Below are positions 17,403 through 57,626 of a stretch of DNA of 64,000 bases, one piece after another. Both the position numbers and the translations under genes were made by a program. The notes below the pieces were generated by a model that saw only the letters and a program-made list of their open reading frames with translations, ran no database searches and was not told the origin of the DNA. Source of the DNA: Octopus vulgaris (taxonomy: Eukaryota); assembly GCA_951406725.2 (NCBI GenBank), contig OX597833.1, positions 12,090,001-12,154,000 of the forward strand, given 5' to 3'. The first letter of the stretch is position 1; every line of letters starts with the position of its first letter.

Positions 17403-17448
17403 ATGTATTTTGCATTCTTATTGACTACTTTAGCCGTCTTTCTTCAGG
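17403..17448 (+). CDS. Peroxidase-like gene, coding exon 1 (signal peptide [15 protein letters not shown])
   Basis: ttccag|G ATG ... CAGG|gtaagt; hydrophobic N-terminus; phase 1. Confidence 0.75.

Positions 17449-57626: not shown

Follow-up and report, generated by a model that had tools for sequence, protein, structure and literature searches.

A 64,000-nucleotide stretch of the Octopus vulgaris genome (hereafter the window) carries a peroxidase-like gene that keeps a long open reading frame and lacks several of the residues that hold and use heme, which raises the question of what such a gene encodes: an enzyme after all, a decaying duplicate, or a protein kept for another task. The answer favoured here, held with about as much doubt as confidence, is a functional gene for a secreted pseudo-peroxidase that would be heme-free and have a putative binding or matrix role in an epithelial secretion.

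Introns were read by eye together with a splice scan, and twelve exons on the forward strand could be joined into 517 stop-free codons (Table 1), with GT at all 12 donors, AG at all 11 internal acceptors and matching phases. This bears out the in-frame 12-exon gene described in an earlier note on this DNA, and every motif quoted there was located on the forward strand. The model is nevertheless open at its 3' end: exon 12 stops at a phase-2 GT donor without a stop codon, so the gene continues past the window, and the tail known from its relatives lies outside. No 3' tail exon was found inside the window with a profile of that tail (best E 0.13), and positions 57627-64000 are 83% simple repeat. 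At the 5' end, a splice acceptor immediately precedes the ATG, which makes an upstream non-coding exon probable. The predicted protein has a hydrophobic N-terminus and no later membrane-like segment (maximum 19-residue hydropathy 1.1), and as far as hydropathy can tell it is of the secreted type, as the earlier note had proposed. An RGD encoded by the 19-nt micro-exon would sit at the probable mature N-terminus, where it may be lost to signal peptidase; it was not seen in the paralogues.

Table 1. Window coordinates of the predicted pseudo-peroxidase gene, its motifs, and the repeats within and around it.
Feature	Position	Strand	Content
Gene model	17403..57626	+	12 exons joined
Exon 1	17403..17448	+	start codon; hydrophobic, signal-peptide-like stretch aa 1-15 (hydropathy only)
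Exon 2	17842..17860	+	19-nt micro-exon, required for phase; RGD at aa 18-20
Exon 3	19251..19387	+	N-terminal cysteines; peroxidase domain begins
Exon 4	22050..22226	+	distal helix: Gln112, Met115 (ester Asp site), His116 (22193-22195), Ca2+-binding Asp117, Phe119
Exon 5	23930..23951	+	22-nt micro-exon carrying CC pair
Exon 6	47737..47846	+	cysteine-rich loop region
Exon 7	49078..49170	+	Ca2+ loop: Ser181, Asp185, Ser187
Exon 8	49498..49554	+	linker ahead of Arg/Glu motif; sole evidence is splice sites, phase and alignment, with tblastn giving no match
Exon 9	51003..51447	+	Asp224 at catalytic Arg site (51011-51013), Gln227 at ester Glu site; His308 (51263-51265), Leu316 at first propionate Arg, Ala319 at proximal His (51296-51298)
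Exon 10	52328..52513	+	Val388 at His-partner Asn, Asp391 at second propionate Arg (52392-52394), family-specific Cys373/Cys379
Exon 11	55514..55674	+	[11 protein letters not shown] at KGD place of peroxinectin-type relatives
Exon 12	57527..57626	+	peroxidase domain end; open at phase-2 GT donor, no stop
GQLLMHD	22178-22198	+	motif
AGDINQNP	51005-51028	+	motif
EHNR	51062	+	motif
[10 protein letters not shown]	51149	+	motif
VYHSF	51257	+	motif
AYKLAMA	51278-51298	+	motif
VSQDARYFG	52383-52409	+	motif
GDRFYYEN	55632	+	motif
LINE, intron 5	26672-31080	+	apparently intact; ORF1 (467 codons stop to stop) overlaps ORF2 (1043 codons, endonuclease/reverse transcriptase)
Copy of intron 5 LINE	44145-45428		inverted, truncated, 97% identical
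Second LINE family	1-1247	-	copy
Second LINE family	32848-33709	-	copy
Second LINE family	35834-39682	+	copy
Second LINE family	40962-44026	+	copy
Second LINE family	58645-59697	+	copy
Transposase-like ORF	3335-4231	+	299 codons, Tc1/mariner-like
Repeated segments	9328-10644		three near-identical (99%) segments, direct and inverted
Palindrome	12528-12856		326 bp

Several of the surrounding repeats are transposons. ORF1 of the LINE in intron 5 gave Myb/SANT-like and CCCH finger matches, both below the Pfam cut-off, and this element possibly belongs to a young, active family. The copies of the second LINE family are 75-95% alike, some being rearranged or locally duplicated, and the Tc1/mariner-like transposase ORF matched DDE_3 at E=1.4e-5. 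The near-identical segments and the palindrome may be either transposon ends or an assembly artefact.

The locus is represented in public data by P0014, an O. vulgaris protein of 244 aa that is identical to exon 9 and whose first 15 residues match window positions 14806-14850 exactly; the public model is therefore a mis-spliced fragment of this gene, which the 12-exon map corrects. Its first exon at 14806-14850 finds support in no paralogue and is probably a prediction error. The closest proteins elsewhere are P0013 of O. sinensis (92% over 246 aa) and P0001 of O. bimaculoides (74% over 279 aa), and the 5' half of the focal gene and of its two closest relatives is covered by no public model.

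By homology, the gene is a member of the peroxidase-cyclooxygenase superfamily. The Pfam An_peroxidase profile (PF03098) matched four of the eight exons scanned at E<=1.1e-4 and in profile order (exon 9 at E=2.1e-14, and exons 4, 11 and 12), a fifth at E=0.026 and three not at all, while with a profile of the relatives eight exons reached E<=6e-4 and no other part of the window scored below E=0.4. The full-length paralogue P0003, 52% identical to the focal protein, matched PF03098 at E=1.4e-72 and was used for structure prediction with AlphaFold2 and a 77-row alignment, giving a model with a pLDDT of 92.1 and a pTM of 0.91. The best Foldseek matches of this model were lactoperoxidase (TM 0.71/0.77) and MPO, and a wide fold search returned MPO with a Z of 37.3 and an rmsd of 2.8 Å over 500 residues. 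Fold comparison with MPO and lactoperoxidase, which the earlier note had suggested as a superposition and which is made here with the model of the paralogue, thus predicts their helical fold. The tail of the model is made of three strands and three helices, and a tail profile links P0001 and other paralogues to P0077, P0181, P0038, P0046 and P0041 (E 1e-8 to 1e-10). Pfam TSP_1 matched the tails of 6 of the 17 relatives scanned, weakly and always below the cut-off, a feature search gave TSP1-like scores of 0.83-0.87 that serve as a lead only, and no TSP1 chain was among the 50 matches listed for the P0003 tail in the wide fold search. With Pfam scores this weak, the full-length relatives appear to carry a C-terminal TSP1-like domain, and as far as homology goes this tail is inherited from active mollusc enzymes and not new.

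The active site was then read residue by residue. The Arg site was counted back from a conserved Pro, and the proximal site was fixed by P0037 through HMMER, which puts the His in AVHSML of P0037 (AMASML in the focal protein) on the proximal His of MPO; the MPO residue roles and numbers behind these assignments are the standard ones. A proximal His with its Asn, and a distal R-x-x-E, are needed for activity according to passages of PMC4420034, whose motif definitions were followed. On the distal side, Gln112 and His116 are present in GQLLMHD and Met115 replaces the ester Asp, all as described earlier; the Ca2+-binding Asp117 is kept as well, and the ester Asp position also varies in active relatives. 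The R-x-x-E is absent. The catalytic Arg had been described as deleted, which proved wrong, as the paralogues are colinear when counted back from the Pro and Asp224 occupies the site by substitution; the ester Glu has indeed become Gln227. On the proximal side, the His-Asn pair is replaced by Ala319 and Val388. Here the earlier reading of 'Met or Ala' was right on the missing His, and the residue itself is Ala and not Met. The reported losses of the partner Asn and of a propionate Arg were confirmed and can be extended to the other propionate Arg, so that the heme propionate anchors are now Leu316 and Asp391, with Phe119 at another site. By comparison, the Ca2+ ligands (Asp117, Ser181, Asp185 and Ser187) and the disulfide cysteines are retained.

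Two ways in which activity might be rescued had been raised with the original reading. The first, a hidden exon restoring Arg or His, was searched for with tblastn of 35 proteins and a profile search, and the window yielded no peroxidase exon beyond those of Table 1 (best E 0.13 and 0.41), the one exception being the wrongly modelled exon at the start of P0014. The second, the His of VYHSF as axial ligand, fails on geometry. His308 aligns with the Asn of the canonical N-x-F, a position that is His in 6 of 13 family rows. It shares a helix with the proximal site (308-320 in the P0003 model) but precedes it by 11 residues, ~16 Å by helix rise, and so cannot be the axial ligand of a normally placed heme. 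The peroxidase cycle cannot run without a proximal His and a distal Arg, and an Asp placed opposite a propionate works against heme binding. Judged by its residues, the focal protein very probably has no peroxidase activity.

A search for the family recovered paralogues at 36-52% identity, on one contig per species, with four records sharing a contig in O. vulgaris, four in O. bimaculoides, two in O. sinensis and two in Argonauta hians. They are single-domain proteins, the full-length ones of 547-641 aa. The shared contigs, close locus numbers and P0006, whose model most likely joins two adjacent genes, suggest a tandem gene order. An IQ-TREE analysis of 48 domains (LG+G4; near-duplicates P0002, P0006 and P0011 and fragments P0014 and P0031 left out) placed the focal gene in an octopod clade of 13 sequences with a support of 100/100, 12 of which have no proximal His; the protein is thus not the stand-alone case it had been taken for. 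Moving outward from this clade, the tree passes P0041, P0038/P0181 and P0077, all without the proximal His and, from their place in the tree, presumably cephalopod, before it reaches the His-keeping P0066, P0067 and P0183; the octopod clade as a whole sits in a mollusc/cephalopod peroxidase clade (100/99). Some branches are long and no mixture model was used, which calls for a degree of caution, though a FastTree of 113 rows reproduces the ladder.

Within the 13 octopod rows, the proximal site is Ala in ten and Asp, Tyr (P0040) and His (P0037) in one each; the partner Asn and the first propionate Arg are found in none, and Asp stands at the second propionate Arg in all 13. The Ca2+ Asp/Asp/Ser is kept in all eight rows that cover those sites. 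Parsimony requires two changes in this region of the tree, one loss of the His and one return in P0037, against five losses if the His had been kept throughout, and P0037 may accordingly have regained its proximal His. On the distal side, P0037, like the N-terminal half of P0006, retains His, Arg and Glu as well; what it lacks are the Asn and the two propionate Arg. P0040, whose N-terminal part is missing, has its Tyr at the proximal heme position, which resembles catalase-type ligation. Among the His-keeping relatives, the abundant octopus ink peroxidase P0066 has both His, Val at the distal Gln and neither propionate Arg.

Conservation across the family was compared with that of 25 reference peroxidases, in which 96 columns are at least 90% invariant. 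The 12 family rows used here kept 44 of these, mostly Gly, Cys, Pro and Ca2+ residues, and the heme contacts are among the columns lost. In addition, 27 columns are newly conserved in the family, including Phe119, Asp391, Cys95, Cys373 and Cys379. Simulated neutral substitution kept the frame free of stops in 50 of 2000 runs at 74% identity (P0001) and in 0 of 2000 at 52% (P0003); at 92% (P0013), 748 of 2000 runs were stop-free, which is uninformative at such identity. Frames have therefore stayed open far beyond the neutral expectation, which argues for selection on the family and holds at the family level. Decay, as far as it could be put to the test, finds no support in frames that are open across such deep divergence. 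For the 'selected, non-catalytic' protein of the earlier note, family-level selection and the loss of the active site both stand, and the most recent branch of the focal copy falls outside this result. The focal copy is probably expressed and functional.

Published tissue data gave protein evidence for the family. In Table S1 of an O. vulgaris arm skin mucus proteome (PMC10138644), all 38 occurrences of 'peroxidase' among the rows listed were taken, and at least 10 spectrum rows belong to the superfamily: six to P0008, one to P0037 (entered as LOC115221595) and three to P0066. The rows of the His-less P0008 (LOC115221592) come from files F6, F7 and F8 and hold two peptides that occur in P0008 alone among the proteins compared. 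The mucus was scraped from arms and contains cellular proteins, so presence there is no proof of secretion. Three motifs of the focal protein were searched for and occur in none of the rows listed, the underlying database possibly lacking the correct model. In ink, the rows listed for an O. vulgaris proteome (PMC10142993) include peptides of P0066 (268 spectra) and P0067, annotated from Euprymna and Sepia peroxidases. HITYNE and related motifs of the focal family are absent from those rows, in which a P0067 control peptide was found; this negative has moderate weight, since another control motif, located far into a long protein, went undetected. Elsewhere, an excerpt of PMC12607849 reports a highly expressed 'peroxidase-like protein' transcript in the posterior salivary gland of Paroctopus digueti, with a 614-long alignment at 91% to its GenBank hit, which fits the focal family by name and length and may belong to it. 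The oviducal 'chorion peroxidase' of O. maya was rejected as a family member: the primer given in the relevant section of PMC8976471 encodes YxDG, which occurs in canonical enzymes and in 0 family members. Peroxidase is not named in the text of an argonaut eggcase preprint, nor mentioned in the main text of PMC7693380.

On the favoured reading, the proximal His would have been lost once and early in a branch of the cephalopod ink and light-organ peroxidase clade, and the dead gene would then have been duplicated into a cluster in octopods. Its products would be exported to surface secretions, for example skin mucus, where a stable Ca2+/disulfide scaffold with a TSP1-like tail would act by putative binding (of mucus, matrix or microbes) and not by catalysis; for the focal copy itself, I infer both tissue and ligand. 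An unlikely extension would have the emptied heme slot rebuilt as a family-wide candidate binding site (the invariant Asp391, Phe119 and new cysteine pairs) serving skin chemistry or microbe control, with the His lost once, regained in P0037, where His, Arg and Glu also stand on the distal side, and replaced by Tyr in P0040. If true, the cluster would preserve natural steps on the way from enzyme to pseudoenzyme and part of the return.

A rival reading is a regulator or decoy, a dead enzyme that would damp active cephalopod peroxidases by binding them or their substrates, or that would soak up microbial peroxidase inhibitors on the skin. Dead and active paralogues do occur together among the rows of one mucus table, an arms race would fit duplication with rapid divergence (74% to the closest O. 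bimaculoides protein, 61% between P0004 and P0008), MPO inhibitors are known from bacteria (going by PDB titles), and inactive PXDNL antagonises PXDN. A decoy, however, ought to retain an enzyme-like active-site entrance, and identity to P0066/P0067 is only 27%, which leaves this account improbable. Only a minor share of the probability likewise goes to the same non-catalytic protein working in another secretion, the focal copy being made in salivary gland, egg cement or sucker cuticle and not in mucus: its absence from the mucus rows listed and the P. digueti salivary transcript (PMC12607849, in the part cited above) agree with this, but the O. maya oviducal enzyme is a different gene and the only protein-level evidence for the family comes from mucus.

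Doubtful, too, is a functional family in which the focal copy alone is a recently silenced, decaying duplicate. The lack of focal peptides among the mucus and ink rows listed would then be expected, as would a public model reduced to a 244-aa mis-spliced fragment, a 23.8-kb intron 5 with LINE insertions, one of them in sense orientation with its two ORFs uninterrupted, and a terminal branch of 0.061 against 0.022 for P0013. Against this, all 12 exons, including the micro-exons of 19 and 22 nt, keep phase and GT/AG, the 517 codons are stop-free, and close relatives occur in two further species of Octopus. Least of all can be said for heme or metal still bound by new ligands (Met115, Met318, His116 or His308) with weak or different redox activity, an idea of which the earlier note had proposed the Met part: Gln112 and His116 survive in the focal copy and one paralogue each has His or Tyr at the proximal site, yet none of the ligands is conserved (Met115 in 4 of the 7 paralogues covering the site and His116 in 1 of 7, with Phe or Ala replacing the distal His in the other six; Met318 in 5 and His308 in 6 of 13 rows), His308 is too far along its helix, and Leu, Asp and Phe stand where the propionates would be anchored, all of which makes such binding very unlikely.

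A heme-free, secreted pseudo-peroxidase would matter for how octopus data are read. Public names in this family are 'myeloperoxidase', 'chorion peroxidase' and 'peroxidase mlt-7-like', and expression papers take these to mean enzymes with an antimicrobial or cross-linking function. It is probable that some of the octopus 'peroxidases' have no enzyme activity, and such readings need rechecking if catalysis has been lost in most of the octopod cluster. A search of open-licence full text in PubMed Central and bioRxiv turned up no account of a family of inactive peroxidases in octopods. Squid heme-peroxidase genes are tandemly clustered, with octopus sequences in the tree, in a study whose accessible portion does not discuss active sites (PMC6386654).

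The nearest known systems are the cephalopod halide and melanogenic peroxidases (the Euprymna scolopes light-organ peroxidase-like proteins, the Sepia melanogenic enzyme and the O. vulgaris ink proteins LOC115221247/LOC115221248), which form the sister branch (100/99) and appear to share with the octopod family the plan of signal peptide, single peroxidase domain and TSP1-like tail. They keep the proximal His and the distal His/Arg, whereas the focal gene is 27% identical to them and without heme ligands. The N-terminal domains of protostome double peroxidases, of the DBLOX/MLT-7 type, are likewise His-less but fused to an active domain, while the octopod family is free-standing; 26 of 181 other recovered domains have no proximal His, and 17 of these 26 are in two-domain proteins. 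These N-terminal domains form a separate clade, so the His was lost independently, and descent of the focal gene from such a domain is ruled out by the tree. Peroxinectins (family 3) offer a secreted invertebrate peroxidase fold with a proposed role in adhesion, but are defined by an active site and a KGD, neither of which the focal gene has (EGD at aa 470-472).

The DUOX peroxidase-homology domain (family 7) has the same fold as the P0003 model (Z 35.9) and, like the focal protein, no proximal His, with activity lost according to passages of PMC4420034, which also call the role of this domain obscure. DUOX, however, is anchored in the membrane and also comprises EF hands and an NADPH oxidase; these parts are all absent from the 517 aa of the focal protein and from its full-length paralogues, and the focal protein is closer in sequence to mollusc peroxidases than to DUOX. 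Free-standing, secreted His-less domains with near-intact relatives would offer an easier test than DUOX of what a heme-less domain does. PXDNL, as described in part of PMC8533639, is secreted and without measurable peroxidase activity beside an active paralogue; it is a multidomain peroxidasin with changes at the distal Gln/Asp, whereas in the focal gene the proximal side is dismantled and the gene has expanded into a family. Inactive members of the superfamily are thus already known from DUOX, double peroxidases and PXDNL, and the octopod His-less family is a new variant among them.
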